A stretch of 64,000 nt of DNA from Thermoplasmata archaeon. Its GTDB lineage: Archaea; Thermoplasmatota; Thermoplasmata; Lutacidiplasmatales; UBA184. Made by a program: the position numbers and the translations under genes. Below the pieces are notes generated by a model, which saw nothing but the letters and a program-made list of their open reading frames with translations, searched no databases and was not told where the DNA came from. Shown one piece after another: positions 1 to 34,470 of the stretch; within the stretch, counting starts at the first letter, position 1; each line of letters starts with the position of its first letter. The DNA lies in NCBI GenBank assembly GCA_022749895.1, contig JAKIWS010000005.1:8827-72826 (forward strand), written 5' to 3'.

Positions 1-3000
1 AGGCATGCGCGGGCTGATCGACGAGTATCTACTGGCCCACGGCCAATCCCCGTACCTGGGGAACGCGAACCTCGCGGTCTACAAGGTCGGGAACGCCTGG
101 CAGAACGGCAACCTCTCGCTCGTCCCGTACTACGACATCGGGACCGTCCCCTACAACGGGGCCACCGGCGTGCTCGGCAACGGGACCAGTTTCTGGGGCA
201 ACTTCGGCGTCCAGCAGGGCTGGCAGTGGCCCCCCGGTCAGAAGTTCCCCGTCAACGCGCTGGGTCAGACGAACTACGGCGATACGCTCCCCGGATGGGA
301 CTTCCCGACCGGCTGGGGCTCGATCAACGTGTACAACTTCGCGGTCGACCTGCTCAAGCTGGACACGCTGCCCGGGCAGTTCCAAACTACGAACCCCGCC
401 GGCACGTCTTGGAATCCGAGCGGTTGGGCAAATCTAGCGATGAACTCAACGTATACGATTCACGTAAACGCCAGTTCGCAAATTGCACTGTCTAACCCCC
501 ACGTTACCCTGAAGTACATGCCTGAGAACGGTCCAGTCTCGACGTTCCAGCCCGCGTTGACGGCGACGTTAACCCCTACCGCAGGCTACACCTTCACTCT
601 CGACACGTCGACCGGCGTCATCAACGGCCCCGGGACCGTCATTTTCGAGTTCGGGAACGCTTCGAACCCTACTCTTGGGTTCGCCTACTCGTGGATCTCC
701 CTTGACCTGCCGAAGACCGGCGCGCTCGTCGTCACGGTGACGCAACCGTCGAGCAGCTCGATCGTGGGCGGCTTCTCCTGGTTCAACACCGCGCTCGGGT
801 ACAACGCGCCCATCACGCTCTCCCCCGGGCTCGGCCCGAACTACGGGAACGAGTTCACCGTCCACGTCACGATGAACGGAAAGCCCGTCTACAACGTGAA
901 GGTCGACGCCACGATCGCGTCGCCCTCGTTGCTCGCCTTCTCGGGCACCCGCCTCGAGCAGGTGACGAACGGCCTCGGTAACCCGCACTGGGAGCTGCCG
1001 AAGATCGTCTCCGAGTCGTTCACGAACGTTACCGGGGACGCGTTCGTCTACACCTGGAACATGATCAAGCCGACCACGTACTTCGTCAACGCCTCCTACG
1101 GCGGCGCGACCGGGGGCACGACCTACCTGGTCACCCCGGGCCCCAACGTGGGAACTACGGACGCGTACAGCGGGAACTATTCCCAGTTCAGTACGCCGGG
1201 CTTCGTGCTTCGGGCGCTCCGCCAGGTCGTGAACGGCGCGACGATCAACGCGACCGAACCGAACGCGCTCAACCAGACCGCACTCTACAACGTGATCTAC
1301 TCGTGGAAGGGCGAACTGCTCAACGTCACGACCAACGACTGGCAGGGCAACCGGCTCTCCGGTCTCAAGGTCTGGCTGGCGACGCTCGACCTCGGGGGCG
1401 AGAACAAGTTCTATCGGTACGAGGGATCGCGCGGTCTCATGGGCGTGACGAACGTCTCCGGAACCTCCGCCATCACCGACCTGAACGGTCAGGCGCAAGT
1501 CTACGTTCCGGACAACTACAGCGCGCTGCCCTGGTTCCAGTACCCCGACGGGACGATCGCCGAGCTCGGCTTCGTCGCAGCCAGCATCCCCGGGGCGTCG
1601 AACCGGACCTTCTCCTACCAGGAGCCGTGCGCGCCCAACAACCTCGGTAACCCGAGCACCAAGATCACGTGCCAGTACAACGACTCGTATTCCCGGAACT
1701 ATACCGGGGCTCCGATCCTGGTCCTGCCGAACCCGGTCGATGCGTGGACGCAGACGCCCAACCTCGTCCAGCGGGACTTCTTCGGGAACGGGGCGAACAT
1801 CTCCTGGGGGTACGACGTGACCCTCCCGAACAACGACCCGTTCCTGACGGGGATCGGCACGGCGTGGCTGCCGGGGACCGAGCACATCACCGGCGTTCAC
1901 GCGTTCGTCGACGGGGCCCCGGCGGGCGATCTATCGCCGGGCAATCCGCCCAACTACCAGAGCTACACCGCGAACGGCAACCTGACGGGGGTCTACGCCG
2001 ACGGGATCCACACGCTCACGGTCATCGTGACCGACTCGACCGGGCACACGTTCTCGAACCGCCACACGTTCATCGTCGGGTCGATCAAGCTGACCAACCT
2101 CGGCGTGACGAGCACCTACACCGTGCTGCCGTTCAACATGACCTGGCACCTCAGCATCCCGGCCGGCCAGATCAGCAACCACACGTTCAACCAGTCGCTC
2201 CAGATCCGGTACGTGACCGGCGCCTGCGGCGGGATCATCCCCTGCCCGGAGGTCGTCAACTACTCGATCAAGATCAAGGACGGGGTCGCCGATTACCAGC
2301 AGTCGCTCAACATCACGCTGCTCAATCTGAAGCACTTCTACGCCGGGGCCGGCGAGCCTCCGCCGGGCCAGTACCAGCTGATCGTCTGGGTCACGGCGAA
2401 CCATTCGGGGAGCATCGCGACATCGATCACGTCGTACCTCGTCTTCGACTCCGTGGCGGGGACGATCAACGGGCCGACCGCGAACGAGCTTTTGCCGCAG
2501 GGGAACGTCACGATCTCCTACTCGTACTCCGGCCAGTACGTTCAGAACTCGACCCTCGAGATCTTCGCCGTGGGTGCCCCGACGATCCCCGTGTTCACCG
2601 CGCAGGCGTTCGTCCCCGGTATCGGACTGCGGGGTGGTGCCGTCCAGTGGTCGGCGGTTCAGGGCGGGGCGTACCAGATCGTGCTGAGCCTAGGTACTCC
2701 GTACCGTACGTTGAACGCCACCGAGTGGGTCAACGTCTCCGGGGGACCCGGGAACGTCTGGCTCAACCAGAGCCGGCTCGCGTCGCCGCTCATGATCGTC
2801 AATCCGGCGGTGACCGCGACGGTGCTCGCCCTCGTGGTGGGCCTCATCGGGTTGCTCCTCGGACTGTTCCTCGCGCCCGCCCTCCGCTCGCGTCCAAGCG
2901 GGAGTGCGGTCGCCGCGCCGCCGCGTCCGTGGGAGGAGAGTTCCTCCTCGCCCGGCGGGCCGAGCGGCCCCACCGGTCCGCCGCGGTATGCGTGCTCGAC

Positions 3001-3073
3001 GTGCAAGGAGGAGTTCGAGACCTCCTACGCGCTCGCGCAGCACCGGAAGATCGTTCACGGGATCGACGAGTAG
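1..3073 (+). CDS. Giant cell-surface glycoprotein-like protein (5' partial). Beta-rich extracellular region with many N-x-S/T sequons, then a C-terminal TM helix and a cytoplasmic C2H2 zinc finger.
   Basis: The ORF is open from the window edge to the stop at 3071-3073. The protein is dense in N-glycosylation sequons. Hydrophobic helix AVTATVLALVVGLIGLLLGLFLAPAL. The tail YACSTCKEEFETSYALAQHRKIVHG fits C-X2-C-X12-H-X4-H. It shares a G-x-Y-Q-[LFV]-[TI]-[VA]-W motif domain with the protein at 8652-10256. Confidence 0.6.
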   Translation, partial: GMRGLIDEYLLAHGQSPYLGNANLAVYKVGNAWQNGNLSLVPYYDIGTVPYNGATGVLGNGTSFWGNFGVQQGWQWPPGQKFPVNALGQTNYGDTLPGWDFPTGWGSINVYNFAVDLLKLDTLPGQFQTTNPAGTSWNPSGWANLAMNSTYTIHVNASSQIALSNPHVTLKYMPENGPVSTFQPALTATLTPTAGYTFTLDTSTGVINGPGTVIFEFGNASNPTLGFAYSWISLDLPKTGALVVTVTQPSSSSIVGGFSWFNTALGYNAPITLSPGLGPNYGNEFTVHVTMNGKPVYNVKVDATIASPSLLAFSGTRLEQVTNGLGNPHWELPKIVSESFTNVTGDAFVYTWNMIKPTTYFVNASYGGATGGTTYLVTPGPNVGTTDAYSGNYSQFSTPGFVLRALRQVVNGATINATEPNALNQTALYNVIYSWKGELLNVTTNDWQGNRLSGLKVWLATLDLGGENKFYRYEGSRGLMGVTNVSGTSAITDLNGQAQVYVPDNYSALPWFQYPDGTIAELGFVAASIPGASNRTFSYQEPCAPNNLGNPSTKITCQYNDSYSRNYTGAPILVLPNPVDAWTQTPNLVQRDFFGNGANISWGYDVTLPNNDPFLTGIGTAWLPGTEHITGVHAFVDGAPAGDLSPGNPPNYQSYTANGNLTGVYADGIHTLTVIVTDSTGHTFSNRHTFIVGSIKLTNLGVTSTYTVLPFNMTWHLSIPAGQISNHTFNQSLQIRYVTGACGGIIPCPEVVNYSIKIKDGVADYQQSLNITLLNLKHFYAGAGEPPPGQYQLIVWVTANHSGSIATSITSYLVFDSVAGTINGPTANELLPQGNVTISYSYSGQYVQNSTLEIFAVGAPTIPVFTAQAFVPGIGLRGGAVQWSAVQGGAYQIVLSLGTPYRTLNATEWVNVSGGPGNVWLNQSRLASPLMIVNPAVTATVLALVVGLIGLLLGLFLAPALRSRPSGSAVAAPPRPWEESSSSPGGPSGPTGPPRYACSTCKEEFETSYALAQHRKIVHGIDE

Positions 3074-3267: not shown

Positions 3268-6200
3268 GTGAACGCCCACATTCGCCCCACCGTTGTTCCC
3301 CGAGCGCCGCGCCGATGGCTCGTCCTCCCACTCCTCGTGGCCATCCTTGCGATCACCGTGGTCGGGTCGGTCCCCGCCCTCGGCCGACCTCTCGCGACGG
3401 CCGTCCATCTTCCCACCGCGAACGGACCCGCCTCGGCCGGGGCCGCGCACGCGGCGATCACGGCCGCCCGCGCCTCGCTGGCGTCGGGTCAGGGACCTGC
3501 CGGGCTCCCCGTGCTCTACTCCGGCTCGCCGGCAACCCCGTGGACGCCCGCCTTCCAGCCCAACGTGGCCCCGTCGGCCCGCGCCGCCCTGGCGATGGCG
3601 TACGACCCGAGCGGTCCGTACGTGGTCGCTTTCGGCGGCGGGTGGAACGGCGGGACCTCGACCAACGACACGTGGGTGTTCGCGAACAACTCGTGGACCA
3701 ACATCTCGGCGACGCTCACGACCGCGCCGGGTCCGCGCGAAACCCCGATGATGGCGTACGATGCGGCCGACGGCTATCTCCTCCTGTTCGGGGGGTACAC
3801 GGGCAAGAACCCGAATTCGACCGGTTCCTACACCCTCAACGACACTTGGAAGTTCACGGCCGGGGCGTGGACGAACATCTCCACGTTCTCGTCATCCGCG
3901 CCCTCCCCCCGGTTCGCCGCGGCGATGACGTACGACTACACCGACGGCTACGCGGTGCTGTTCGGCGGGAACACGCTGTTCGGACCGCCCCTGAACGACA
4001 CCTGGACGTTCCACGCCGGAGCCTGGACGAACGTCTCCGCGACCGCCGGGACGGCACCGGCCGGTCGGGACTTCGCCGCGATGGCGGACGACCCGTTCGA
4101 CGGCTACGCCCTCCTGTTCGGCGGCTGGAACTCGACCAGCTCCGCGCTCTACAACGACACCTGGACGTTCGCGGGGGGGCACTGGGGCGCGCTCGCGACG
4201 ACCGTGCAGCCGGTGCCGCTGCGCGGGGAGAGCCTCGCGTACGACGCTTCGCACCACCAGGTGATTCTGTTCGGCGGGGCGGCAGCCGGCCTCGGTGGGC
4301 CGTTCTACCCCCAGGCGCAGACCTGGAGCTTTGCCGGCGGGGTGTGGACCGACCTCACCGCGACGATCGCGAGTCCCCCCCCGGCACGCTACCTGGCCGC
4401 GCTGACCAACGTCTCCGCGAACGGCTCGCTGCTGATGGCGGACGGATGCCTCGGGCAGGGCTGCGCGAACTTCCTCGACCTCTCCGATAGCTGGCTCTTC
4501 AACGCCTCGGGACCCGTGGCGCGGCCCTGGATCGAGGTCGGCGCGGTCGTCCAACCGTCCGAACGGGCGACCCCGGGGATGGTCTACGACGCCGCGGACC
4601 ACTACGTCCTCTACTTCGGCGGCGGGTGGAACGGCGGAACCTCCACGAACGATACCTGGGTGTACGCGAACCACACGTGGAGCAACATCAGCGCGAACGT
4701 GACGACCGCCCCCGCGGCCCGCGAGGACCCGGCGATGACGTACGACGCCCTGGACGGCTACGTGCTCCTGTTCGGTGGATACAGCGCGACGGGTGGCTAC
4801 GGCTCCCCGTCGTACACCCAGAACGACACGTGGACGTTCCACGCCGGGGTCTGGACGAACATCACGGCCTCCTCGCCCACCCACCCGTCCGCGCGCTTTG
4901 CGTCGGTCATGACCTACGACTACAACGACGGCTACGCCGTCCTGTTCAGCGGGAACGTGCTCTTCGGTGGCCCGATCGAGGACACCTGGACGTTCCACGC
5001 CGGGGTCTGGACGGACGTGACCGCGACGGCGGGAGCGCCCCCTGCAGGCCGCGACTTTGCGTCGATGACCGACGACCCGGCCGACGGGTACGTGCTCTTG
5101 TTCGGCGGGTGGAATTCGTCGATCGCCACCGTCTACAACGACACGTGGACGTTCGCCGCCGGGAAGTGGGCGCCGCTCACCCCCGCGGTCTCCCCGATGC
5201 CGATCCGCGGCGCGAACGTCGCGTTCGAGACCGTCGGGAACTACGTCCTCCTGTACGGCGGCCTCACCTACAGCGGCTACGGTTGGCCGTTCGGCTTCGT
5301 CACGGAGACGTGGGCGTTCAAGGCCGGGAACTGGACCAACCTGACGCCGATGATCACGACCGAGCCGCCCCCCCGCATGCTCGGCGGGATCACCAACATC
5401 TCCGGTACCGGGGAGATCGTGATGGCGGACGGCTGCATCTACCAGGGCTGCCCGGTCAACGAGGACCTCGCGGACACGTGGATCTACAACTGGACGAACA
5501 TCAACGGCACGTTCACGTCGCTCGCGCCGGTCGTGCTGCACCAGTCGGCGAAGTTCGCGGTCCACGTCTTCGGCGGCGACGGGGCCTATTCGTACCGGTA
5601 CTCCGGCCTTCCCGGCGGATGCACCTCCGCGAACGTCGCCGTGTTGAACTGCGTCCCGGCCTACGGGGGCAACTACACGATCGTGGCGCAGGTCACCGAC
5701 CGCGCCGGCAAGATGCTCGACCTCCGCCTGAACCTCACCCTCGGGGTCATGCCCCGCTCGCTCGCGCTGAGCGCCTCGGTCCCGGTGCTCGACGTGGGAC
5801 AGTCGGTGACGCTGAGCGCCGTGGCCGGTGGAGGCGCGGGTGCGCCGTGGACGTACGCGTTCACCGGGTTGCCGCCGGGCTGTGCGAGCGCGAACGTCGC
5901 GTCCCTCAGCTGCTCGCCGACGCAGGGCGGGAGCTACACCGTGACGGCGACCGCGACCGACGCCCAGGGTGGGCCGGTCCGCTCGGTCGTCGGCTTGGTC
6001 GTCCACCCGCCGGTGCGCGTCGCCGCGACGGTCTCCGCGGCGACGTTCGACCTCACGGAGTTCGTGACGATGACCGCCGCCGCCAGCCAGGGGTCGTCGG
6101 TCTACACCTACCTCTGGTCGAACCTTCCGACCGGTTGCCAGGCGGGCGCCACGACGACGACGCTCCAGTGCAAGCCGGCAACGGCCGGGACGTTCGCGAC

Positions 6201-6792
6201 CACGCTCCAAGCGACCGACTCCCTCGGGGAATCGGCGGTGACGGCGCCGATCGCCCTCACGGTGAACCCGCTCCCCGGGGTGCAGCTCGCGGCCCCGGTG
6301 GTCTCCACCTCCGACCCGCTCTCGGCAACGCTCGCCGCGCAGACGACGGGCGGGACCGGTCCGTACGCGGTCGCGTGGAACTTCGGCGACGGTCAGGCGG
6401 GTTCCGGGCCCTCGGTCGTCCACATCTACGCGGCCGGCGGCACCTACACCGTGGCCGTGTCGGTGACCGATGCGCGCGGGTTCGTCGCCTCGAGCAGCCA
6501 GAGCGTCACGGTGCAGGCGAGCCAGTCGAACTCACCGCCCCCGAACCACCCGACCGCGACGCACGGGGCGACGCCCTGGTTCGCGACGTTCGCGGGGATG
6601 TTCGGACTCGGCCTCGTGATCGGACTCGTGGCGCTGGCCGTCGTGGTCGTCTGGGGCGCCCGCCGTCGGCGGACGCTCCTCGAAGCCGAGCAGCTCGTGA
6701 CGGCGATCCCGCTCGTCGTGGAAGGTCCCCCAGGGGCCCCCACGATGGGCCCGGCCACGCCGAGCGGACCGTCCCCCCCACCGAAGGTTTAG
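3268..6792 (+). CDS. Large surface protein with a tandemly duplicated Kelch-like beta-propeller region, a PKD domain and a C-terminal membrane anchor.
   Basis: GTG start with an N-terminal signal/TM (WLVLPLLVAILAITVVG). Kelch-type units such as YDxxDGYxLLFGG and NDTW recur. PKD motif WNFGDGQAGSGPSVVHIYAAGGTYTVAVSVTD near the C-terminus. TM FAGMFGLGLVIGLVALAVVVVW followed by RRRR. Many N-x-S/T sequons. Confidence 0.65.
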   Translation: MNAHIRPTVVPRAPRRWLVLPLLVAILAITVVGSVPALGRPLATAVHLPTANGPASAGAAHAAITAARASLASGQGPAGLPVLYSGSPATPWTPAFQPNVAPSARAALAMAYDPSGPYVVAFGGGWNGGTSTNDTWVFANNSWTNISATLTTAPGPRETPMMAYDAADGYLLLFGGYTGKNPNSTGSYTLNDTWKFTAGAWTNISTFSSSAPSPRFAAAMTYDYTDGYAVLFGGNTLFGPPLNDTWTFHAGAWTNVSATAGTAPAGRDFAAMADDPFDGYALLFGGWNSTSSALYNDTWTFAGGHWGALATTVQPVPLRGESLAYDASHHQVILFGGAAAGLGGPFYPQAQTWSFAGGVWTDLTATIASPPPARYLAALTNVSANGSLLMADGCLGQGCANFLDLSDSWLFNASGPVARPWIEVGAVVQPSERATPGMVYDAADHYVLYFGGGWNGGTSTNDTWVYANHTWSNISANVTTAPAAREDPAMTYDALDGYVLLFGGYSATGGYGSPSYTQNDTWTFHAGVWTNITASSPTHPSARFASVMTYDYNDGYAVLFSGNVLFGGPIEDTWTFHAGVWTDVTATAGAPPAGRDFASMTDDPADGYVLLFGGWNSSIATVYNDTWTFAAGKWAPLTPAVSPMPIRGANVAFETVGNYVLLYGGLTYSGYGWPFGFVTETWAFKAGNWTNLTPMITTEPPPRMLGGITNISGTGEIVMADGCIYQGCPVNEDLADTWIYNWTNINGTFTSLAPVVLHQSAKFAVHVFGGDGAYSYRYSGLPGGCTSANVAVLNCVPAYGGNYTIVAQVTDRAGKMLDLRLNLTLGVMPRSLALSASVPVLDVGQSVTLSAVAGGGAGAPWTYAFTGLPPGCASANVASLSCSPTQGGSYTVTATATDAQGGPVRSVVGLVVHPPVRVAATVSAATFDLTEFVTMTAAASQGSSVYTYLWSNLPTGCQAGATTTTLQCKPATAGTFATTLQATDSLGESAVTAPIALTVNPLPGVQLAAPVVSTSDPLSATLAAQTTGGTGPYAVAWNFGDGQAGSGPSVVHIYAAGGTYTVAVSVTDARGFVASSSQSVTVQASQSNSPPPNHPTATHGATPWFATFAGMFGLGLVIGLVALAVVVVWGARRRRTLLEAEQLVTAIPLVVEGPPGAPTMGPATPSGPSPPPKV
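3571..5540. repeat. Internal tandem duplication of about 0.98 kb per unit inside the Kelch-repeat gene (two copies of a whole propeller module).
   Basis: Protein residues about 102-429 and 430-757 align end to end (AMAYDPSGPYVVAFGGGWNGGTSTNDTWVFANNSW versus MVYDAADHYVLYFGGGWNGGTSTNDTWVYANHTW). The DNA is also clearly similar, for example ttcggcggcgggtggaacggcgg.acctc.ac.aacga. Confidence 0.6.
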
Positions 6793-8651: not shown

Positions 8652-10256
8652 ATGAAAGTCGTCACCAAGCTTATGCGCCGAGCTTCGGGTAAGAATGTAG
8701 GTGCGGTAGCGACTACGGCCATACTGGTGCTCGCCGGGGTCGCGGTGTTGGGGTTCGGTCTCCTCAGCACGCACTCGGCGGTCTCCGTGGGGATTCCCCA
8801 CGGGGGTGCGGTCGCGCCGTTCACCAAGGCCGTCCACCCCGCGGCGGCCCCGAAGCCCCTAGCGCCCCCAAGTCCGCCCGTCACCGTGACGGTAGCGATC
8901 ACCGCGCAGCCGCCCACGAGCTCCGACATTCCGCTCTCGTTCAACTTCTCGGTGGTCGTGACGGGGGCCGTCGCGGACCGGCACAACCTCACGCTCACCG
9001 TGGCCGCCTGGGAAGTCGCCCCGAGCACGCTGATCGCGAACTACTCGGTCCACGTCGTCAAGAACCAGGTCGCCTACACCACGACGGTCGACTACGGCAA
9101 GCTCAACACCCAACTGTTCAACGGCGGAAACCTGCCGGGCGGCAACTACCAGTTCACCGTCTGGGGAACGATGGTCAACAGCACCAACGCCTCGGTGGCC
9201 ACGGCCACGGGGAGCGCGACGACGGCGCAGAGCAAGCTCTACGTCATCGACGTCCGCACGAGCCTCGCGAACGGGCTCACCCTCTACGAGACCGTGCCGT
9301 TCAACATCACGTTCAACGTGTCGATCACCGGCAACCAGGGCGTGCCGCTCCGCACGGACAGCGCGGTGCTCTCCGTCGAGGCACGGTACATCGTATCCGG
9401 CTGCGGCAGCGTCTTCGGCTTTGGTGGACCGTGTCCGTCGGTGACGAACGTGACGGTCCCGGTGGTCAACGGGACGACCTCGTACACCTTCACCGTGAAC
9501 GGCGCGTTCCTTACCGCCGGCGGCTTCGGCGCGGCGACCTCGGTCGCCGGACTCCCGCACGGGTCGTACCAGGTCATCGCCTGGGCGACGATCATGAACG
9601 CCAGCAACGCCTCGGCCGAGCCCCGGACGGGAGCGGCGGCGCACAACCAATGGCTCGTGCTCAACCCGCTCGTCGGGGCCGTGCTGTCGCCCGGCGCCAA
9701 CACGACGATCTCGACCGGCAACGTGACGATCTCGGTGGGCTACGGCGGCGACTTCATCAACGGCGCGAACGTGACGGTGACGTCACCCTCGGGCTCGACG
9801 GTGTTCGCGAACCCTGTGTTCGTCCCGGGCACCGGCTATCGGGCGGCGACCACCGTGACGCCGTGGGTCGTGACCACGCCCGGAACGTACACGATCACCC
9901 TGGTCGTGACCTCGATCCCGGGCGGGACGGCCGGAACGCTCACTGCGGTCGAGAAGGTCACGGTCGTGCCCGCGGGCGGAACGGTGTTCCAGAACACGAG
10001 CTCGTTCTCGAACCAAACGGTCATCCCGGGACTCAGCGGGGCGGTCGGCGGTGCGCTGCTGATCGTCATCGGCCTCATCATAGGCATGATCGTCGCGCTC
10101 GCCCTGGGGCGGGCGATGTGGGGCGGAGCGAAGCCCGCGCCGGCCCAGCCGTGGACCGGGACGACGTCGCCGACGGAGTGCCCCGTCTGCCACCAGACGT
10201 TCCCGACCGAAGAGGCGATGAAGGAACACTCCAAGTCCGCCCACGGGATGCAGTAA
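8652..10256 (+). CDS. Cell-surface protein with Ig-like repeat units, a C-terminal TM helix and a cytoplasmic C2H2 zinc finger. Paralogous in domain content to the protein ending at 3073.
   Basis: N-terminal signal/TM (AVATTAILVLAGVAVLGFGLL). Repeated units carry GNYQFTVWGT...NSTNAS and GSYQVIAWAT...NASNAS. TM LLIVIGLIIGMIVALALG. The tail ECPVCHQTFPTEEAMKEHSKSAHG fits C-X2-C-X12-H-X4-H. Confidence 0.6.
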   Translation: MKVVTKLMRRASGKNVGAVATTAILVLAGVAVLGFGLLSTHSAVSVGIPHGGAVAPFTKAVHPAAAPKPLAPPSPPVTVTVAITAQPPTSSDIPLSFNFSVVVTGAVADRHNLTLTVAAWEVAPSTLIANYSVHVVKNQVAYTTTVDYGKLNTQLFNGGNLPGGNYQFTVWGTMVNSTNASVATATGSATTAQSKLYVIDVRTSLANGLTLYETVPFNITFNVSITGNQGVPLRTDSAVLSVEARYIVSGCGSVFGFGGPCPSVTNVTVPVVNGTTSYTFTVNGAFLTAGGFGAATSVAGLPHGSYQVIAWATIMNASNASAEPRTGAAAHNQWLVLNPLVGAVLSPGANTTISTGNVTISVGYGGDFINGANVTVTSPSGSTVFANPVFVPGTGYRAATTVTPWVVTTPGTYTITLVVTSIPGGTAGTLTAVEKVTVVPAGGTVFQNTSSFSNQTVIPGLSGAVGGALLIVIGLIIGMIVALALGRAMWGGAKPAPAQPWTGTTSPTECPVCHQTFPTEEAMKEHSKSAHGMQ

Positions 10257-16686: not shown

Positions 16687-16743
16687 CTACGGGGTCGGAC
16701 CGCTAAGTTTCCGGGGAACCGGGATCTCTTGGGTGAGAACTAC

Positions 16744-19700
16744 ATGGAGCAAGCGAAAGCGTCGTACACGGGTCGTTGGGGAGGCCGCCGAGGGATCGGC
16801 ACGGCCATCGCCGCGGTGGTCATGGTCATCGTGATTGCCCTGGTCGGGGCCGGCACGTATGTCGGTCTCAATTCCCAGCCGCACGGGAACAAGACCGTCA
16901 AGTCGTGCACGCCGGCGAACTCTCCGATCTGTGTCGCTTCCGCACAGACGCACGATGTCGGTCTGCTGGTGCCGTTCAAGGCGTCGCAGACGGGCAATAC
17001 GGTTCCTTTCACCGCCATCCTCCCGGCCGGAGACACGGCCTCCAGTTTTGCGTTCAATTTTGGTGACAGTGGCCCCACGAGCACGGCGACCTCCACCCAG
17101 CCGACCGTGACCCACGTCTACTCGAGCGCGGGCGTCTACCTGATCTCCGTCCAGGCGACGGTCCGCGGCGTCGTGCACGACAACTACCAGAAGCTCACCG
17201 TTGTGACGGTCTCGGCGTTCGCGAGCGCGGGCGCCGCGAACCAGCCCGGCGTGTCGGGCTCGGTCGTGACCAACAGCACGGCGATCACCGGCTCTCCTCC
17301 CACGACGATTCTGCAGCCGGGCGGCTCCGTGACCTTCACGGGCTCCTACACCGCCGCTCCGACGAACCCGCAGTTCGTCTTCGCGTCCCCCACCATCATC
17401 TCCTCGACCGGCGGCACCGTTCAGGGAACGCCCACGAACACCACCACCTCCGCCACGGCCGCCTATTCGTTCGCGGCCTCGGGAACGTATGTGGTGACGT
17501 TCGTCGGGAAGGCCGTCAGCGGAACGGTGAGCGCCTTCCAGAACTACACTTGGACCGTCTTCGTCGCGCCGAGCGGCATCCACGCGGGGGTCGCCGGTAC
17601 GGGGGTCGCAACCAGCCCGCACAAGGGCTCGCTCAACATCTACGAAGAAACCCCCGGCGGCGGCACCAGCGAAGACCCGGCCGTCGACTACGAGACAGCG
17701 GGCTACGAGGTCATCCTCAACGTCTACCAGACCTTGATCGCGTACAACGGCAGCCAGACGGGTCCGACGTACGCGTCGTACGTCCCCCAGCTCGCGACGT
17801 GCGTGCCGGGAAGCCCGGCGTGCGCGCTGCAGTTCAGCGGCAACACGCTGGTCCGCGGCGACAACTACACCTTCGTCCTCGACTCGGCGGCGAAGTTCTT
17901 CGACCCGGCGACCAAGGCGTCCTGGGGCGTCTACCCGACCGACGTCCTGTTCAGCGTCGCGCGCACGATGAGCTTCGCGAACCTGCCGTCGTTCGGCGGC
18001 AACAACGGCTGGATCCTCGAGCAGGCGATGCTGCCCTCCGGGAACAAGAACTGGGACGGGGGCCTCCACGGCGCGCGGAACAACACCCCGGACAACATCT
18101 ACAGCCACGTCATCCTCAACGGGAGCGACTGCCCCGCCGTAGCGATGACCGGGGCGGCCTACCACGGCTGCGTCACCTTCTGGGCGAACGGCGCGGGTCA
18201 TTCCTGGCCGTACTTCCTGGAACTGATCGCGGACAACCTGGGCGCTTCGATCGTTCCGTGCGGCTGGTTCAGCGCGGCACCTCAGGTAGCGGGCATCCCG
18301 TACTGGACGTACAACAACGTCACCGGCTCGGGCGACCACCCGTGCGCCGCGCCCGGAACGCCCGGCTGGGGCCTCTCCCCGACGGCCATCGCGGCGAAGC
18401 CGACGGCGTGGGACAACTACCAGATGGTCGGCTCGGTGCCTCCGTTCTGGGGTAAGGTCCAGTGGGCGTTGGCGGGCAGCGGCCCGTACTACGTCCCGAC
18501 CGGCGGCTACCAGATCGGCTTGAGCTACCTGCTCCAGGCGAACCCCGCGTACGTCCAGCCGTCCTTCTGCCACGGCGCCGGCTGCGAGCCCGCCGCCGGC
18601 CAGTACGCCGCGAAGGTGAGCGTCATCTGGGAAACGACCCAGACGCCCGGCGAGCAGGCGTATGCGACGGGGGTCGCGGACGAAGCGTCGATCCCGGGAA
18701 CGGACACGGCGTTGCTGCTGTCGTTGGTCGCCCAGGGGAAGATCCAGGCGATCACGTTCCCGTCGATCAGCATCGACTTCTTCCCGTTCAACCTGTTGTT
18801 CAACGCCCCGGGGGCCGCGAAGTACACCTCGAACCCGATCACCGTGCAGCCGGACTTCTTCAGCTACCTCGCGGTGCGGCAGTTCTTCGCGCATGCGTAC
18901 CCGTACACGACGATCCAGTCGACGCTGAACACGATCGACGGGATCCAGGGGGCGTTCAACTACGGTGGGGCGATCCCGCAGTTCATGGCGAACTACTACC
19001 CCACCAACGTGAGCTTCCCCAACGCGGACCCGTGTGCGGACAACACGAAGGCCGCGTGCGCGGTGTACTGGTGGGCGCAAGCGACGAGCGCGTCGTCCCC
19101 GTACTACGATAAGGAGCTCGCGGCGTGTTCGTCGTCGAGTCCGTGCGAGGTGCCGCTGTTCGGCCAGACCGGCGCACCGACGCTCGATGAACGGATGGCG
19201 CTGTGGGCCGCCTCGATCAACACGATCTCGGGCGGTGCGGTCAAGGTCGACACGCTCGACATCAACTTCGTCGACGCGGTGATCAACTCTCTGTTCAGCC
19301 CGCCGGGCGCCAACGCGATGCCGTTCTACCGGCTCGGCTGGGCGCCCGACTACCCGGACCCGACGGACTACGTGACGCCGATGTACCTGCCCGACAGCAC
19401 GTACACCTCGGCGGACACCGTCGCGGAGCAGCTCGGGGTCGGCGTCAACACCGCGTTCAACGACAGCAGCTGTGCGACGACGGCGGCGTTCACGAACTAC
19501 GTCAAGTGGGCGTCGATTGCCCAGACGACCGGCGGGATCCCGAACAACTGCCAGGGCATGGCGTACAGCTCCATGACCTACCTCGAGGGCTTGGCGGCCG
19601 TCCAGCCGGCGGGCCCGCAGCGGGTGCTGATGTACAACTGGGTCGAGCAGATCGCGAACGCGCTCGCGCTCTACACCTACTCGTTCCAGAACAACTACAT

Positions 19701-19809
19701 CTACACCTACGCGAGCTGGATCGACGGGTCGACGATCAACAGCAACGTGACGATCGGGGGCGGCGGCGACTCGCTGTGGTACCTGATCGGCGGCAACGGG
19801 GTCTACTGA
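16744..19809 (+). CDS. oppA: Oligopeptide/dipeptide-type ABC substrate-binding protein (SBP family 5) with an N-terminal signal anchor and an inserted PKD domain.
   Basis: N-terminal TM AIAAVVMVIVIALVGAGTY. PKD motif FAFNFGDSGPTSTATSTQPTVTHVYSSAGVYLISVQATV. SBP_bac_5-like core (DPAVDYETAGYEVILNVYQTLIAYN, then GWAPDYPDPTDYVTPMY). About 1020 aa. Paralog of 35291-38305. Confidence 0.75.
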   Translation: MEQAKASYTGRWGGRRGIGTAIAAVVMVIVIALVGAGTYVGLNSQPHGNKTVKSCTPANSPICVASAQTHDVGLLVPFKASQTGNTVPFTAILPAGDTASSFAFNFGDSGPTSTATSTQPTVTHVYSSAGVYLISVQATVRGVVHDNYQKLTVVTVSAFASAGAANQPGVSGSVVTNSTAITGSPPTTILQPGGSVTFTGSYTAAPTNPQFVFASPTIISSTGGTVQGTPTNTTTSATAAYSFAASGTYVVTFVGKAVSGTVSAFQNYTWTVFVAPSGIHAGVAGTGVATSPHKGSLNIYEETPGGGTSEDPAVDYETAGYEVILNVYQTLIAYNGSQTGPTYASYVPQLATCVPGSPACALQFSGNTLVRGDNYTFVLDSAAKFFDPATKASWGVYPTDVLFSVARTMSFANLPSFGGNNGWILEQAMLPSGNKNWDGGLHGARNNTPDNIYSHVILNGSDCPAVAMTGAAYHGCVTFWANGAGHSWPYFLELIADNLGASIVPCGWFSAAPQVAGIPYWTYNNVTGSGDHPCAAPGTPGWGLSPTAIAAKPTAWDNYQMVGSVPPFWGKVQWALAGSGPYYVPTGGYQIGLSYLLQANPAYVQPSFCHGAGCEPAAGQYAAKVSVIWETTQTPGEQAYATGVADEASIPGTDTALLLSLVAQGKIQAITFPSISIDFFPFNLLFNAPGAAKYTSNPITVQPDFFSYLAVRQFFAHAYPYTTIQSTLNTIDGIQGAFNYGGAIPQFMANYYPTNVSFPNADPCADNTKAACAVYWWAQATSASSPYYDKELAACSSSSPCEVPLFGQTGAPTLDERMALWAASINTISGGAVKVDTLDINFVDAVINSLFSPPGANAMPFYRLGWAPDYPDPTDYVTPMYLPDSTYTSADTVAEQLGVGVNTAFNDSSCATTAAFTNYVKWASIAQTTGGIPNNCQGMAYSSMTYLEGLAAVQPAGPQRVLMYNWVEQIANALALYTYSFQNNYIYTYASWIDGSTINSNVTIGGGGDSLWYLIGGNGVY

Positions 19810-30177: not shown

Positions 30178-32883
30178 ATGAAACTCCGTGCACTTCGCCC
30201 GGCGCTGGTGATCCTGCTCGCCGCCGCCACGATCGCTAACTCGGCGCCGTTCGCGCTCGCCGCGGGCCCGCACGAACGAGCTCGCGGCGTGAGTTCTCCA
30301 TCGGCGATGTCACCCGACGCGGCCGCGATCCCCGCCGCGCTGCTGTCACCTTGGGCGGCCCGGGCCGGATATTCGCCCGCGTACGCGGCCGAAGTCGCAG
30401 GCGCCGGACCGGCCAGCGGGAATCTGACCGTCAGCCTCCAGCTCTGGCCGTCGACGACGTCGTTCTTCCGAACCCCGGCGCCCGGCGCCCCGGGCCTCAG
30501 TGTCGGGTCGCTCGCCGACCGGTACGGCCTCTCCCCCGCCGCGTACTCGTCCCTGGTCGCGTACTTCACCCACCGTGGGCTCGCCGTCCTCCACGCGTGG
30601 CCGGATCGCCTGGGGTTGACCGTGTCGGGACCCGCCGCGGCGATGGGCACCGCCTTCGGTACCCAGGTGCTTCAGGGCTCCTTCGAAGGTCGCACGGTCA
30701 CCTTTCCGGCCTCCGTGCCGACGCTCCCCGGGCCGTTCGCTACCGAAGTCGCTGCCGTCTCCGGCCTCACGTACGGCTTTTCCCGGTTCACGATCCCCTT
30801 CGCGACCGCCGCCCTTCCGGCGGGGTTCGGGGTCCACCCCGCGATCACCACCCCGTCGCGGAGCACCGATTTTGTCACTCCAGCGGGCGCCCGGCTCGTC
30901 TACGACTTGAACGGTCTCTACAACGTCTCCGGTACGCCGAAGTACGCGACCGGGATCGGGATCGCCCTGCTCCTGTGGGGGTGGGGGTACGACCCCGCCG
31001 ACATCCAGGGTTTCTTCGGGACGTACTACCCCAGCCAGTTCCCGGCGGTCCAGTACTCGGACGTGGCGGTCGACGGGGCACCGGCGGCCTCCGCACAGGC
31101 GCTCAACGACCCGAGCAACGCCCCCCTCGAGCTGACGCTCGACATCGAGTGGGCCGGCTCGATGGCCCCCGGGGCCAACCTCTACGCCGTCCACGGCCCA
31201 GACGGGCCGGCGAACAACAACTACTCGCCCACCGACGCGACGTTGGAAGACGCGCTCAACACCGCGGTGAACGGACTCTCCGGGGTCCGAGCGATCTCGA
31301 TGTCGTTCGGAACCCCCGACAGCTCGGACGCCTCGTTCCAGGCGGCCTTCTCGCTCCAGTTCGCGAAGGCGGCGAACCGGGGGATCACGCTCCTGGCCGC
31401 TTCCGGCGACAACGCCGGCGACGCGAAAACATCGTGCACGGGCGGACCCTCGCCCCAGTTCCCCGCCGCCTCCCCCGACGTGCTCGCGGTCGGCGGCACG
31501 GCCCCGATCCTAACGGCGGACCCCCTCGGACAGGTCACCGGCCTCTCCAGCGAGCCGGCGTGGAACGATTCCGGCGGCGGCTACTCGGCGACCTATCCCG
31601 CGCCATCGTGGCAGCTGGTGGGTTCGGCGGCCGGCCCGATCGGCGCGCACGGTTTCCGGGGGATCCCGGACGTCGCGGGTCCGTCGAACCGGAACTTCTT
31701 CTACTACGGCGGGCAAGCGCGCGCCGGCCAGGGGACCAGCTTTGCCACGCCGATGTGGGCCGGCCTCGTGACCGAGATGGACGCCGTCTCGGGCGACAAG
31801 CTCGGCTTCGTCAGCCCGCGCGTGTACGTCCTTGGCGCCGCGGAGGCGAACGGCACGGCCGGCGCGGGGCTCGTCGACATCACAAGCGGGGCGAACTGCC
31901 TCGGGAACGCCGTCACCGGTTGGGACCAGGTGACCGGCTGGGGCTCGCCCCGTGCGAAGACGCTCTACCTGGACCTCGTCTCGACGTTCGTCAACGTGTC
32001 GCTCGTCGCGACCCCCGCGCCGGTGCTACCGGGCGGCGCGCTGACGGTGACCGTCCTCGTCCTCAACCTGACCAGCGGGCGGCCGATCTCGACCCTCCCG
32101 GTCCAGTTCGCTCTCGCCGCTTCGAATGGATACACAGGCCCGTGCGGGGGGTCGCTGGCCACCGCGGTCGCCCCGACGAACGCGAGCGGCTTCGCGGTCG
32201 CGACCCTGGGTCTACCGGGGTGTTACTTCGGGAGCCACGCCACCGTCTCCGCCCTCGTGCAGACGAACGGCTTCTTCGGCAGCAACTCGACGAGCGTCGC
32301 GGTCAACCTCGAGAGCCTCGCCGGGTTCCTCGCCGCGCTCCACGTCTACCCGTACAACGTGATCGGGTTCGTGATCATCCTCCTCGTCGCGGTCGGCATC
32401 GCGTATGCGATTGGCGAGTTCCGCCACAAGCGGGCGCGCGCCCGGGCCACCCGAGCCCGTGCAGCGGCCGCTCCACCGGTCCGTCGGGCCGCCCCGCCCG
32501 CGGTCCGACCCGCTCCGCCGAAACCGGCCGCGGTCGTACCGTTGGCATCGAAACCGGCGCCGAGCTCGAGTATTTCCCCTATGACCGCGACCGGGGCCGG
32601 TACGACCCCAGGCCCCCTGGGCGGGAGCTCGTCCACGATGGCGGATCCGATCCCTACGTCGGTTCCTCCGCCCGATCCTCCTCCGTTGTCGGAAGAGACC
32701 GACGTAGAACCGGACCTCCCGACCGACGATCCTGTCCCGTCGACGGTCCCCGACCATGTCCTCGACCCCTCCGGGCCCGCGCCGGCCCCTCTGCCTTCGA
32801 GCGGCGCCTTCGCGTGTCCGGTGTGCCACGCGATCCACCCCGTAGGGACGAGCATCTGTTCCGTATGCGGGACCGCGCTCTAG
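30178..32883 (+). CDS. Sedolisin-type (S53) serine peptidase with signal peptide and pro-domain, a C-terminal TM anchor, a Pro/Ala-rich linker and a C-terminal C4 zinc ribbon.
   Basis: Signal MKLRALRPALVILLAAATIANSA. S53 motifs SGDNAGD and GGQARAGQGTSFATPMWAG. TM VIGFVIILLVAVGIAYAIG followed by RHKRARARA. The tail is CPVCHAIHPVGTSICSVCGTAL (C-X2-C-X10-C-X2-C). Confidence 0.7.
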   Translation: MKLRALRPALVILLAAATIANSAPFALAAGPHERARGVSSPSAMSPDAAAIPAALLSPWAARAGYSPAYAAEVAGAGPASGNLTVSLQLWPSTTSFFRTPAPGAPGLSVGSLADRYGLSPAAYSSLVAYFTHRGLAVLHAWPDRLGLTVSGPAAAMGTAFGTQVLQGSFEGRTVTFPASVPTLPGPFATEVAAVSGLTYGFSRFTIPFATAALPAGFGVHPAITTPSRSTDFVTPAGARLVYDLNGLYNVSGTPKYATGIGIALLLWGWGYDPADIQGFFGTYYPSQFPAVQYSDVAVDGAPAASAQALNDPSNAPLELTLDIEWAGSMAPGANLYAVHGPDGPANNNYSPTDATLEDALNTAVNGLSGVRAISMSFGTPDSSDASFQAAFSLQFAKAANRGITLLAASGDNAGDAKTSCTGGPSPQFPAASPDVLAVGGTAPILTADPLGQVTGLSSEPAWNDSGGGYSATYPAPSWQLVGSAAGPIGAHGFRGIPDVAGPSNRNFFYYGGQARAGQGTSFATPMWAGLVTEMDAVSGDKLGFVSPRVYVLGAAEANGTAGAGLVDITSGANCLGNAVTGWDQVTGWGSPRAKTLYLDLVSTFVNVSLVATPAPVLPGGALTVTVLVLNLTSGRPISTLPVQFALAASNGYTGPCGGSLATAVAPTNASGFAVATLGLPGCYFGSHATVSALVQTNGFFGSNSTSVAVNLESLAGFLAALHVYPYNVIGFVIILLVAVGIAYAIGEFRHKRARARATRARAAAAPPVRRAAPPAVRPAPPKPAAVVPLASKPAPSSSISPMTATGAGTTPGPLGGSSSTMADPIPTSVPPPDPPPLSEETDVEPDLPTDDPVPSTVPDHVLDPSGPAPAPLPSSGAFACPVCHAIHPVGTSICSVCGTAL

Positions 32884-32962: not shown

Positions 32963-33943
32963 GTGACCGAACCGCGCTCCAAGCATCCGTCGGTGGCCGA
33001 GGTCGCGCGCGATTACATTGGAGCCCATCCGAGCATCCGCGAGGCGTTGCGCGACGACCTGGTCAATTACGCCGCGCTCGCGCGGAAGATCCAGCAGGAG
33101 CAGGGCCTCGCGAGCCTCGAAGCGTTGACTGTCGCGTGCGCGCGCTACCAGCGGGCCGGCCGGGGCGATCCGCCCGGCCTCCTGGCGGTGCGCGCGATTG
33201 TCCGGAAGAGTCACCTGGAGGTGCATTCGCACGTGGCGTTGCTCCGGCTCGATGACGACTGGAGCGTCCTCGACGCCGTGCTCGCCCGGGGCCGCCGCGC
33301 CGTGAAGGAATCGACCGAAAGCCACCTGTTCGAGGTATTCCAAGGTACGCGGTCGGTGACGGTGCTCTGTCAGGAGCACCTCCTCCCGGCGCTCCTCAAC
33401 CTCGTTCCCGAGGCGAAGCGCCTCGGGACGGAGCGCGGGCTCAGTGTCCTCGCCTTCCGGAGCCGGCCCGGGGTCGCGGAAACGCCGGGCGTCCTGGCGT
33501 ACTCGGCCGATGAACTGTTCCGCAACGGGATCAACGCGCTCGAAACCGTCAGCGTTCACGCCGACTCGATCCTCGTGTTCCGGGACCGGGACGTCCTCCC
33601 CGCGTTCGCGACGTTGTCGCGCTTGTTGGCGACGTTGGACGGCCCCTTCGACCACGGTCGACAGGAACCCGCCCGGTTCTCGCGATCCATGGGTCGGGGG
33701 CCGCCAACCGCGAGCGAACCGAGACGGAGATCCCGCCGGCCCTCGTCGACGGGCAGCGAGGGTTCGGTCGACTCAATCGGGAGGGGCGCCCGGGGTCTCC
33801 GCGGGGGGGGGTGTCCCCGAATCCAGGTCAGGCTTCCACGGGTGGGGCTTCGCCCCGGCGCTCGGGGGTCCGGATCGGCTCGGGCGCCGACGGCGCGCTT
33901 TGCAGGGCGCCCTGGAGCAGCACCGATCGTTCGCGGGCATTGA
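32963..33943 (+). CDS. ACT-domain protein (predicted small-molecule-binding regulator). The 3' end is uncertain; it is a paralog of 34471-35166.
   Basis: ETPGVLAYSADELFRNGINALETVSVHADSILVFRDRDVLPAFATLSRL matches the ACT fold pattern. The N-terminus aligns with the paralog (IREALRDDLVNYAALARKI versus IRDCLGYDIVNFTALARKI). The conserved part ends near residue 235; the Arg-rich tail may be non-coding read-through. Confidence 0.5.
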   Translation: MTEPRSKHPSVAEVARDYIGAHPSIREALRDDLVNYAALARKIQQEQGLASLEALTVACARYQRAGRGDPPGLLAVRAIVRKSHLEVHSHVALLRLDDDWSVLDAVLARGRRAVKESTESHLFEVFQGTRSVTVLCQEHLLPALLNLVPEAKRLGTERGLSVLAFRSRPGVAETPGVLAYSADELFRNGINALETVSVHADSILVFRDRDVLPAFATLSRLLATLDGPFDHGRQEPARFSRSMGRGPPTASEPRRRSRRPSSTGSEGSVDSIGRGARGLRGGGCPRIQVRLPRVGLRPGARGSGSARAPTARFAGRPGAAPIVRGH

Positions 33944-34217
33944 GCCCCGGATGCTGGCCGTAGAGGTGAATCTCGAGACTGGCGCGGGTCGCGTACTGGC
34001 GCGCGCAGACCGGGCAGAGGAACGCTTGGGAGTCCCCGATGAAGCGGGAGCATTCGCACCCGACCACGTGGCACGGCATCGGGGTGGTCCGGTCGCGGGG
34101 GCGGCTGAAATGCCGGCGGAGCCGGCCGGTCTGGGGGGAGAGAAGGTAGTGGCTAGCCCGTAGGTGGGTGCAGACTCGGCAGGGGAGTAGGCGCAGATGA
34201 CGTCGCTGGGTGACCAC
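33828..34217 (-). CDS. Small C2H2 zinc-finger protein.
   Basis: FLCPVCARQYATRASLEIHLYGQH fits C-X2-C-X12-H-X4-H. Additional Cys/His pairs lie upstream (CRVCTHLRASH; CHVVGCECSRF). The start is uncertain. Confidence 0.45.
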   Translation of the reverse strand: MVTQRRHLRLLPCRVCTHLRASHYLLSPQTGRLRRHFSRPRDRTTPMPCHVVGCECSRFIGDSQAFLCPVCARQYATRASLEIHLYGQHPGLNARERSVLLQGALQSAPSAPEPIRTPERRGEAPPVEA

Positions 34218-34470
34218 AGGCGGGGTTCTGTCCTCCTTCCGTTGTCGTGCCGTCCGCCAGAACTTCCTCGGGACCCGGCCCGTGTAAGACCCTGGACGGC
34301 TACCGCACGAGGTAGCCTAGAGGCATATATCCTCGGCGTCGCCCGCGCGACATCCGACCCCCCCGCGGTGTCGCCCGGGCGGCACCCGATTCGGCGCCAT
34401 ACCGGCGCCTCTCCGCCGAGCGCAACCCTCTTCCCGCGCGACCCCCCTCGGCTTCCCCACCACAGGGTCG

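Follow-up and report, generated by a model that had tools for sequence, protein, structure and literature searches.

A membrane-anchor cassette ending in a predicted cytoplasmic C2H2 zinc finger on surface proteins of high-GC Thermoplasmata

Two surface proteins with a terminal C2H2 finger

The stretch analysed here, hereafter the window, comprises 64,000 nucleotides of a Thermoplasmata archaeon of the Lutacidiplasmatales (GenBank assembly GCA_022749895.1, contig JAKIWS010000005.1, positions 8,827 to 72,826 of the forward strand), and all coordinates count from its first letter. Its GC content is 65-71%. Two of its genes, which we call P1 and P2, encode surface proteins that end in a single transmembrane (TM) helix, a linker and a C2H2 zinc finger predicted to lie in the cytoplasm. 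A sequence-only reading had drawn attention to this layout, and translation bears it out, as both proteins have a TM helix followed by a terminal C-x2-C-x12-H-x4-H motif at the positions given below. A six-frame scan of the window finds strict C2H2 motifs at only three places, these two tails and a small soluble open reading frame (ORF) at 33828-34217 on the minus strand.

2..3073, plus strand: P1, the C-terminal 1022 aa of a 1641-aa S53 (sedolisin-type) peptidase whose N-terminus is lost at the window edge
2117..2806, plus strand: P1 stalk of immunoglobulin-like (Ig-like) β-sandwich domains, homologous to P2 residues 212-457
2807..2884, plus strand: P1 TM helix AVTATVLALVVGLIGLLLGLFLAPAL, with a small-xxx-small (GxxxG) motif; predicted local distance difference test (pLDDT) score of the helix 96-98
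2885..2986, plus strand: P1 juxtamembrane region, with a predicted cytoplasmic Arg, PRPWEE at 2921-2938 and a poorly conserved Gly/Ser/Pro linker
2987..3070, plus strand: P1 finger YACSTCKEEFETSYALAQHRKIVHGIDE, acidic, C-x2-C-x12-H-x4-H-G-I-D-E, then the stop codon
8652..10256, plus strand: P2, a predicted 534-aa type I membrane glycoprotein with a signal or anchor sequence, three Ig-like domains, TM helix, W..PW motif and C2H2 finger
10023..10109, plus strand: P2 IPGLSG motif, invariant, and GxxxG TM helix; G460, L461, S462, G474 and G478 are among the invariant residues
10110..10175, plus strand: P2 juxtamembrane stretch RAMWGGAKPAPAQPW (10110-10154) and short linker, the most conserved stretch of the protein
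10176..10253, plus strand: P2 finger ECPVCHQTFPTEEAMKEHSKSAHGMQ, C-terminal, acidic, C2H2

The two helices are strongly hydrophobic (Kyte-Doolittle 2.74 in P1 and 2.95 in P2), and each C2H2 motif ends 3-4 residues before the stop codon. P1 had been read as a sequon-rich extracellular protein of more than 1000 residues. Its ectodomain, helix and finger stand, but what the window holds is only the C-terminal 1022 residues of a longer enzyme, as these are 100% identical to the end of P0012, a protein of 1641 aa (NCBI L3K15_01990, ‘Thermoplasmata archaeon’). The apparent ATG start at nucleotide 5 is internal, with no stop codon upstream, and directly follows the catalytic GTSxA motif. P0012 matches the Pfam families Pro-kuma_activ (PF09286, E 3.2e-16) and Peptidase_S8 (PF00082, E 4.7e-8), and inspection of its alignment with a second S53 peptidase of the window, P3, reveals EMALD and GGTSFACP, that is E-x3-D and G-T-S-x-A-x-P, which we take to be the Ser-Glu-Asp catalytic motifs of S53 enzymes. 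By these sequence criteria P1 is a giant membrane-anchored S53 peptidase with predicted peptidase activity.

BLASTP pairs residues 705-1021 of P1 with residues 212-534 of P2 in one colinear alignment that runs from the stalk through to the finger (30% identity, E 3e-30). In the aligned tails both Cys and both His are invariant, along with a Gly in the helix and the Gly that comes after the ligands; a Trp, a Phe and a Thr are nearly so. Since the homologous module is shared colinearly, the two proteins are paralogs and not two independent occurrences. Their likeness is that of one duplicated module of ~320 aa, neither independent recurrence nor convergence, and P2 is a non-catalytic paralog of the C-terminal module of P1. 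The suggestion that the layout recurs independently within the window is thus not upheld for this pair, nor for P3, whose relatives lack its zinc ribbon (below).

The tail is a constant feature among relatives. All 40 full-length P1 orthologs (41-87% identity) retain it, in the order helix, R, linker, (K)PW(E/D)E, linker, finger and HGIEE, and the 10 complete P2 orthologs (34-77% identity) are most conserved in the helix, LGRxMWGGxKPxPAQPW and the finger, which none of them lacks. Across the P1 family, mean pairwise identity is 0.64 in the catalytic domain, 0.53 in the stalk, 0.51 in the helix and 0.23 in the juxtamembrane region; within the tail, PWEE reaches 0.62 and the finger 0.58, with the linker at 0.19. 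Judged by identity, the P1-family finger is about as conserved as the catalytic domain. Selection on the module is strong. 

Several lines of evidence point to a type I topology. The N-termini of P0012 and P2 are signal-peptide-like. N-x-S/T sequons are enriched in the ectodomains of P1 and P2 alike (z = 4.6), with zero in the tails. In the 15 aa that precede the helix, Lys and Arg number 0.19 on average, compared with 2.07 in the 15 aa that follow it, and 141 of 150 members have the larger count on the C-terminal side. Signal peptides, sequon distribution and positive-inside charge all place the tail on the inside, as had been supposed, and support a predicted topology in which P1 and P2 are type I proteins with cytoplasmic C-termini.

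The finger itself is strongly conserved. In the 103 finger-bearing cluster representatives examined (from the family search described below), all four zinc ligands are kept without exception, accompanied by F (99%), L (91%), K (90%) and G (98%). The P1 and P2 tails have the C-x2-4-C-x12-H-x3-5-H ligand spacing of the classical C2H2 class, and the hydrophobic core of that class is present as the Phe after the second Cys (99%) and the Leu three residues before the first His (91%). A chance motif is ruled out by the 100% conservation of the zinc ligands, and a frameshift or assembly artefact by the tail being in frame in more than 100 independent assemblies. Of the findings that could have undone the sequence-only reading for P1 or P2 (a tail outside the cell, unconserved Cys and His residues, a frameshift), none was encountered.

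The suggested Pfam check gave a divided answer. Both tails are matched at E ~1e-3, but below the gathering scores (for the two tails: zf-C2H2_6, 19.6 and 19.8 bits with a cutoff of 25; zf-C2H2, 16.4 and 14.6 bits with a cutoff of 25.2), as is expected for a lone 23-aa finger. A sequence search of the PDB with the tail (phmmer) returned C2H2 fingers only, with a best E of 1.4e-4. Modelling, which had also been called for, was clearer: AlphaFold2 run on the tail alignment predicts a TM helix (pLDDT 96-98) and a ββα finger (~95) joined by a linker that scores 55-60, with the strands of the finger at model residues 61-62 and 69-70 and its helix at 73-84. Foldseek matches to this model are nearly all classical C2H2 fingers, superposing with a root-mean-square deviation of 0.7-1.8 Å over finger-only alignments of 25-31 residues; with a domain this short, their E-values do not reach significance. 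The finger is thus predicted to have the classical ββα C2H2 fold. 

The AlphaFold2 model built on the P2 alignment (mean pLDDT 70.8) has three β-sandwich domains that lead into a helix at 463-491, after which come a disordered segment and a helix at the very end, and Foldseek comparison with the PDB gives only generic tandem Ig/FN3/macroglobulin-like matches.

A classical C2H2 finger invites the idea, raised in the sequence-only reading, of a membrane-tethered transcription factor that binds DNA. Its pattern and predicted fold are those expected, and the nearest matches in both sequence and structure are eukaryotic DNA-binding fingers. C2H2 fingers contact bases through positions -1, +2, +3 and +6 of the helix. 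In the present fingers these positions are occupied by T, F/Y or E, A, and Q/E. Each of the 50 members examined carries a net charge of -1 to -4, and a basic flank is absent. Moreover, the tail would first have to be released, and no evidence of release was found. Because the finger is single and acidic, with non-basic contact positions and no basic flank, we reject a DNA-binding role, and consider a tethered transcription factor highly improbable. The exposed residues of the finger helix are family-specific, with FALHQHQKI..HGIEE in the P1 family and EELKEH.K.AHGM in the P2 family.

A small cassette family with diverse heads

An exhaustive hidden Markov model search, with the P2 alignment as the profile, against 1.84 billion cluster representatives recovered 159 matches at E ≤ 1e-3 and 129 at E ≤ 1e-10. 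The family is therefore small, at ~130 clusters. A TM helix and a C2H2 end occur together in 107 of the 129 representatives, 98 of which also have the PW motif; a further 14 have a Gly/Ser-rich tail in place of the finger, and the remainder are fragments. The 103-representative consensus reads ..IPGLSpa..GtlLLVVGLIiGmIVALlLGRmmWGG..PAPAQPW..NECSVCHQSFaTeeELkeHxKsaHGM. G-xxx-G is found in 94-100% of the TM helices, and the G-L-S-type motif that precedes them has G in 81% and L in 65%. A cassette made up of two Ig-like stalk domains, the G-L-S-type motif, a GxxxG helix, Arg, W..(P)W, a flexible linker and an acidic C2H2 finger is well supported. No NCBIfam model matches the family or its tail, and some database entries are named only ‘C2H2-type zinc finger protein’.

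The members that lack a finger form a subfamily of their own (P0087, P0089, P0101, P0111, P0142, P0144, P0152, P0159-P0162, P0167, P0169 and P0171). They carry GRxMWGGxKPxPAQPW followed by a Gly/Ser/Thr-rich tail of 30-50 aa that ends in ..NPPS or ..TNKP; the P2-type juxtamembrane stretch thus persists even where the finger does not.

Family members range from 103 to 1694 aa, and the larger ones align with one another through their last ~300 aa only. The heads mounted on the cassette include several S53 peptidases, one thermopsin and the Ig-only form seen in P2, and most have no Pfam match. The thermopsin, P0133, is a 1198-aa protein with an A5 acid peptidase head (PF05317, E 4e-56) and the full sequence of stalk, TM helix, PW motif and C2H2 finger. 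Two unrelated acid-protease families, S53 and thermopsin, thus use the same anchor, and by their sequences the enzymes that carry it are predicted to be cell-bound rather than secreted.

Portability of this kind is a property of sorting signals, which leads to a second explanation, a sorting or processing signal. Here the G-L-S motif would be cut by a sortase-like or rhomboid-like enzyme, with PW and the finger as a recognition handle for that enzyme or for a quality-control factor. The tripartite layout of a conserved motif (IPGLSG), a helix and a positively charged start to the tail fits this idea, as does the presence of the cassette on several unrelated heads. However, known CTERM signals end a few basic residues past the helix, whereas this tail runs for 45-70 aa and includes a folded domain. 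No NCBIfam sorting-signal model is matched, there is no archaeosortase-like gene among the annotated ORFs of the window, and the cassette always brings a stalk of ~230 aa, and so is more than a signal. A signal in this strict sense seems quite unlikely. The narrower claim that the tail is unlike known archaeal C-terminal anchors holds good, given its length, its folded domain and the lack of any NCBIfam match.

We also surveyed the finger at the DNA level. A tail-only profile in a word-indexed protein search had yielded just four short fragments, probably as words from the TM helix dominated the candidates. A degenerate DNA pattern of the finger, scanned over one genome per GTDB species, returned at least 118 loci; fewer than 10 matches are estimated to arise by chance under uniform base composition. 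The pattern was built from the P1/P2 family, so that the census is biased towards that family and incomplete. Among the 128 finger matches listed, 39 (32 loci) are type I tails, 16 have an N-terminal finger followed by a TM helix, 47 are small soluble proteins and 26 are of other kinds. All 32 type I loci come from Thermoplasmata-type metagenome-assembled genomes (MAGs), compared with none of the 83 loci of other taxa among these matches. The Thermoplasmata membrane-finger loci that were checked have 63-73% GC, with one exception.

The relatives of P1 and P2 are likewise all from ‘Thermoplasmata archaeon’ MAGs. Two of these, AcS4-93 (L100) and AcS5-34 (L012), both syntenic with the P1/P2 slot of the window, belong to the Lutacidiplasmatales and have 68% GC (PMC9287336). 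That order is characterised by ~69% GC and genomes of ~2.1 Mb, and its most prevalent extracellular peptidases are S53 and thermopsin enzymes; the word ‘zinc’ occurs 0 times in the text of the report, which leaves a zinc tail on these peptidases unmentioned (PMC9287336). As far as these searches reach, the cassette family is found only in high-GC Thermoplasmata, that is, in the Lutacidiplasmatales and their relatives.

The census also brought up proteins of a mirror-image layout, with an N-terminal C2H2 finger, a basic stretch, one TM helix and an extracytoplasmic domain (among the matches listed: L006, L018, L027, L033, L049, L059-L061, L066, L069, L078, L081, L091, L094, L097 and L113). Their hosts are Thaumarchaeota/Nitrososphaeria, Nanoarchaeota, Woesearchaeota and one Thermoplasmatales MAG. 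The outer domains are DsbA/Thioredoxin_4 in L061 and L081, thioredoxin-like in L033, and unannotated and His-rich in L018, L060, L066, L094 and L113. Two polytopic Thermoplasmata membrane proteins unrelated to the stalk family also end in a cytoplasmic C2H2: L039 (~4564-6668, plus strand, ORF of 301 aa, 48.6% GC) has ~4-5 helices and three fingers, and L047 (1131-2012) has four helices and one finger.

P3, the other S53 peptidase of the window, had been presented as a variant of the same architecture.

30178..32883, plus strand: P3, a 901-aa S53 peptidase (MCI4350295.1) with signal peptide, TM helix and 160-aa tail
32344-32415, plus strand: P3 TM helix, after which the tail is basic, then Pro-rich, then acidic
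32809-32880, plus strand: P3 C4 knuckle FACPVCHAIHPVGTSICSVCGTAL, CPVC-x10-CSVC, terminal

The enzyme, the helix and the knuckle are indeed there. P3 matches PF00082 (E 4.6e-9) and PF09286 (E 0.011), is named ‘S53 family peptidase’ at NCBI, and shows ELTLD and GQGTSFATP as catalytic motifs when the alignment is inspected; all four Cys of its tail fall within the last 20 residues. With P1 it has the S53 catalytic domain alone in common, and its tail is unrelated. The knuckle scores below threshold against the zinc-ribbon families Zn_Ribbon_1 / DZR (E 0.054 and 0.47), and the ribbon is absent from both relatives of P3 recovered in the metagenome scan (L119, 50% identity; L120, 42%), both of which end in a Pro-rich tail after a TM helix. 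The collection has nothing closer, P3 being a singleton cluster. The variant therefore stands as a feature of this protein but is not kept in L119 and L120, and the knuckle may be either a second independent zinc tail on an S53 peptidase or a strain-specific addition.

Gene neighbourhood and the possible role of the tail

We read the neighbourhood around the orthologs P0013, P0036 and P0054; three genomes, at L121, L122 and L123, span 41-87% identity to P1. Gene order in these three is RtcB, an S53 protein with PKD repeats on the opposite strand, an S2P protease (M50-PDZ), PriL, CDP-alcohol phosphatidyltransferase, AAA_18 and P1, followed by P2, SHMT, Csl4, a methyltransferase, PRC and DNA ligase. 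P1 and P2 usually adjoin at one fixed place on the chromosome, and are same-strand neighbours in at least 13 loci (L012, L022, L048, L064, L079, L084, L100, L103, L105, L107, L121, L122 and L123). L020, L092 and L104 have a short P2-like gene alone in this slot, between AAA_18 and SHMT, which indicates that the Ig-only form is the constant member of the locus and that P1 is the same cassette with a protease head added. 

Relative to L121-L123, the window has two genes inserted between P1 and P2. These and the other features around the P1/P2 locus, in the window and in the syntenic loci, are as follows.

3268..6792, plus strand: surface protein of 1174 aa with Kelch β-propeller and PKD domains, a C-terminal TM helix and a 50-aa tail without a zinc motif; inserted between P1 and P2
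7493-8545, minus strand: Methyltransf_24 gene, inserted with the Kelch/PKD gene
16741-19809 and 35231-38305, plus strand: SBP_bac_5 paralog pair of ~1020 aa each, with an N-terminal anchor, PKD and an oligopeptide-binding SBP_bac_5 domain
32963-33943 and 34321-35166, plus strand: DUF7523 pair flanking the small C2H2 ORF, the second also matching ACT_7
33828-34217, minus strand: small soluble C2H2 ORF with motif CPVCARQYATRASLEIHLYGQH, basic, with a Cys/His-rich stretch preceding the motif, ~1 kb downstream of P3
58988-59227, plus strand: small zinc-ribbon ORF of 79 aa with two CxxC..CxxC motifs, typical of small archaeal zinc-finger proteins
S2P gene (Peptidase_M50 and PDZ) in the syntenic loci: L121 6092-7444, L122 6210-7562 and L123 6130-7566, and also in L020, L092 and L104
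L121 1731-5945, minus strand, with equivalents in L122 and L123: a further S53 peptidase (the third), ~1400 aa long and containing PKD repeats, adjoining the S2P gene

The remaining annotated ORFs of the window are oligopeptide-binding proteins and housekeeping genes, and Rfam and tRNA scans of the window gave no matches. The C-terminal ends of the two SBP_bac_5 paralogs are nearly identical (..NITIGGGGD..), and the pair fits surface proteolysis coupled to peptide uptake. The small soluble C2H2 ORF is probably a real gene (third-codon-position GC of 0.81), with a weak zf-Di19 match only. Neighbours of the small zinc-ribbon ORF are an ABC-2-type permease-like gene on one side and a GAF-domain gene on the other. 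The third S53 peptidase of L121-L123 has a TM helix followed by a short Pro-rich tail that lacks a zinc motif, and zinc tails are therefore not general to the S53 enzymes of these genomes.

Wherever the region is available, the S2P gene is located ~2.5 kb upstream of the P1/P2 slot, and its equivalent here would sit just beyond the left edge of the window. This raises the prospect of regulated proteolysis, in which the ectodomain is shed and an intramembrane cut frees a PW-linker-finger peptide of 45-70 aa that would bind or sequester a regulator in the manner of an anti-sigma factor, reporting on the state of the envelope or of proteolysis. A cytoplasmic domain as conserved as the catalytic domain and held on a flexible tether would suit such a system, as would the Gly and Pro in the TM helix. 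The S2P gene accompanies either P1 or the lone P2-like gene clade-wide. In a review, the natural substrates of the archaeal homologs of S2P, rhomboid and SPP are given as unknown, which leaves room for such clients (PMC9263693). 

However, the S2P gene is part of a block of conserved housekeeping order (PriL, CDP-alcohol phosphatidyltransferase, AAA_18, SHMT, Csl4), so nothing specific can be read from the linkage. The helices cut by S2P enzymes are of type II (N-in), whereas the cassette proteins are predicted to be type I. On these two points, the synteny of the whole block and the opposite helix preference, we give a functional link between this S2P and the cassette little weight. Furthermore, no regulator gene is paired with the P1/P2 locus in the neighbourhoods examined, and the finger is acidic and single. 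Regulated release of the tail is thus unlikely.

A simpler possibility is that the tail has no partner at all. A fast-folding zinc domain and a belt of interfacial Trp residues could act as a structural or topogenic lock, fixing the C-terminus inside and stabilising the single-helix anchor of a large glycosylated ectodomain. The finger is at the extreme C-terminus and W..PW at the membrane interface, ectodomains of up to ~1550 aa are held on one helix, and some members manage without a finger. Yet a simple plug would need neither a family-specific finger-helix surface nor the conservation of an acidic C-terminus, and other type I proteins of these genomes are anchored with no finger, including the Kelch/PKD protein at 3268-6792 and the S53/PKD protein of L121. 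A lock of this kind is conceivable, although we regard it as fairly unlikely.

The best current reading, in that it fits the data best, is the other proposal made from the sequence, an anchoring tag by which envelope proteins connect to a partner in the cytoplasm. We suggest, tentatively and as possible rather than probable, that the cassette is a cytoplasmic protein-binding handle on a surface-enzyme anchor, that P1 and P2 stand side by side, and that the finger does not bind DNA. The task of the cassette would be to keep extracellular acid proteases, together with their non-catalytic paralog, attached to the cell surface. P1 and P2 could associate laterally through their homologous stalks and GxxxG helices, an association proposed because of those two features and the adjacency of the genes. 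The PW motif and the acidic finger would then be protein-binding handles that tie the complex to a cytoplasmic partner, and in the P1 family the invariant acidic C-terminus may work together with them. W..PW is even better conserved than the finger. Contact with the partner might serve positioning, clustering, retention or outside-in communication.

Several observations weigh against this handle model. The 14 of 129 representatives that keep the helix and W..PW and have a Gly/Ser-rich tail instead of the finger indicate that the finger is not indispensable to the family. The neighbours of P1 and P2 are housekeeping genes, and no conserved neighbour points to a partner. The association of P1 with P2 is suggested only by paralogy, adjacency and GxxxG, and as both fingers are acidic they probably do not bind each other. 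Zinc binding, topology and fold of the cassette are themselves predictions.

A bolder reading would make the cassette a transmembrane communication device. The state of the outer part (for example, autoproteolytic shedding of the protease head or of the Ig-only paralog) would be relayed to the cytoplasm through PW and the finger, by intramembrane cleavage that releases the finger peptide or by partner exchange at the membrane, and the mirror-image proteins with N-terminal C2H2 fingers and outer DsbA/thioredoxin domains in Nitrososphaeria and in Nanoarchaeota/Woesearchaeota-type (DPANN-like) archaea would follow the same principle. We consider this a long shot. Should it be correct, an archaeal intramembrane protease would have its first candidate natural substrates or clients in these proteins, and a prokaryotic C2H2 finger its first signalling role.

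Relation to known systems

So, how new is the cassette? No description of a TM helix followed by a C2H2 tail in archaea was found in the literature searched. Its elements are known ones (C2H2 fingers, Ig-like stalks, single-pass anchors, S53 and thermopsin heads); the arrangement, and a probable role other than nucleic-acid binding, appear undescribed. The C2H2 finger is a hallmark DNA-binding module of eukaryotes that has barely been studied in archaea, and here it is fixed as the predicted cytoplasmic end of single-pass surface proteins. The analysis gives an anatomy to ~130 clusters of proteins listed as ‘hypothetical’ or ‘C2H2-type zinc finger’. If the tail is a signalling or sorting handle, it would also offer a route into outside-in communication in archaea and into the substrates of intramembrane proteases.

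With classical C2H2 fingers of the TFIIIA/Zif268 type, the P1 and P2 fingers share ligand spacing, the Phe and Leu core and the predicted ββα fold. The nearest single structures are the QALGGH finger of SUPERMAN (1NJQ) and the fingers of INSM1 (8JPY). Unlike classical fingers, that of the cassette is single, acidic, placed at the extreme C-terminus of a type I glycoprotein, and has no TGEKP-type linker.

In overall plan the cassette proteins resemble ZAS/zf-HC2 anti-sigma factors and proteins with an N-terminal zinc ribbon and a TM helix, which likewise combine a small cytoplasmic zinc domain, one helix and an extracytoplasmic domain, and in which the ZAS/zf-HC2-type zinc domain serves protein-protein binding. 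However, those proteins are type II, with an N-terminal zinc domain of non-homologous fold and a paired sigma factor gene, whereas the cassette is type I and C2H2, with no cognate regulator gene. The RseA/RsiW-like regulators processed by S2P are also type II and accompanied by a cognate regulator gene, and the cassette proteins have neither property.

Closer to home, CdpC of Haloferax volcanii is a membrane anchor of FtsZ1 whose zinc-ribbon domains mediate membrane-proximal protein contact with FtsZ1 (bioRxiv 10.64898/2026.07.16.738847). CdpC and the cassette both have an archaeal zinc domain on a long disordered linker at the membrane, engaged in CdpC with protein rather than nucleic acid (bioRxiv 10.64898/2026.07.16.738847). 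CdpC differs in being fully cytoplasmic, with an amphipathic helix, two ribbons (C3H and C4), no ectodomain and no homology to the cassette family. As an archaeal precedent, the CdpC-FtsZ1 pair supports the idea of a membrane-proximal zinc domain as a protein binder. 

The archaeosortase/PGF-CTERM system shares with the cassette a short conserved motif, a C-terminal helix, positive charge and a range of diverse surface proteins, but the cassette has a 45-70 aa tail with a predicted folded finger and a stalk of ~230 aa, and lacks PGF, PEF and VPXXXP motifs.

The heads of P1, P3 (both S53) and P0133 (thermopsin) belong to the same families as the S53 and thermopsin enzymes of acidophilic Thermoplasmatota. 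The acid proteases that bear the cassette are probably used by abundant uncultured archaea of acidic soils to feed on protein, and whether such enzymes stay bound to the cell bears on models of nitrogen turnover in soil. The sedolisins and thermopsins that have been characterised are soluble, secreted enzymes, whereas those described here add a β-rich extension of ~900 aa, a membrane helix and a predicted cytoplasmic zinc tail.

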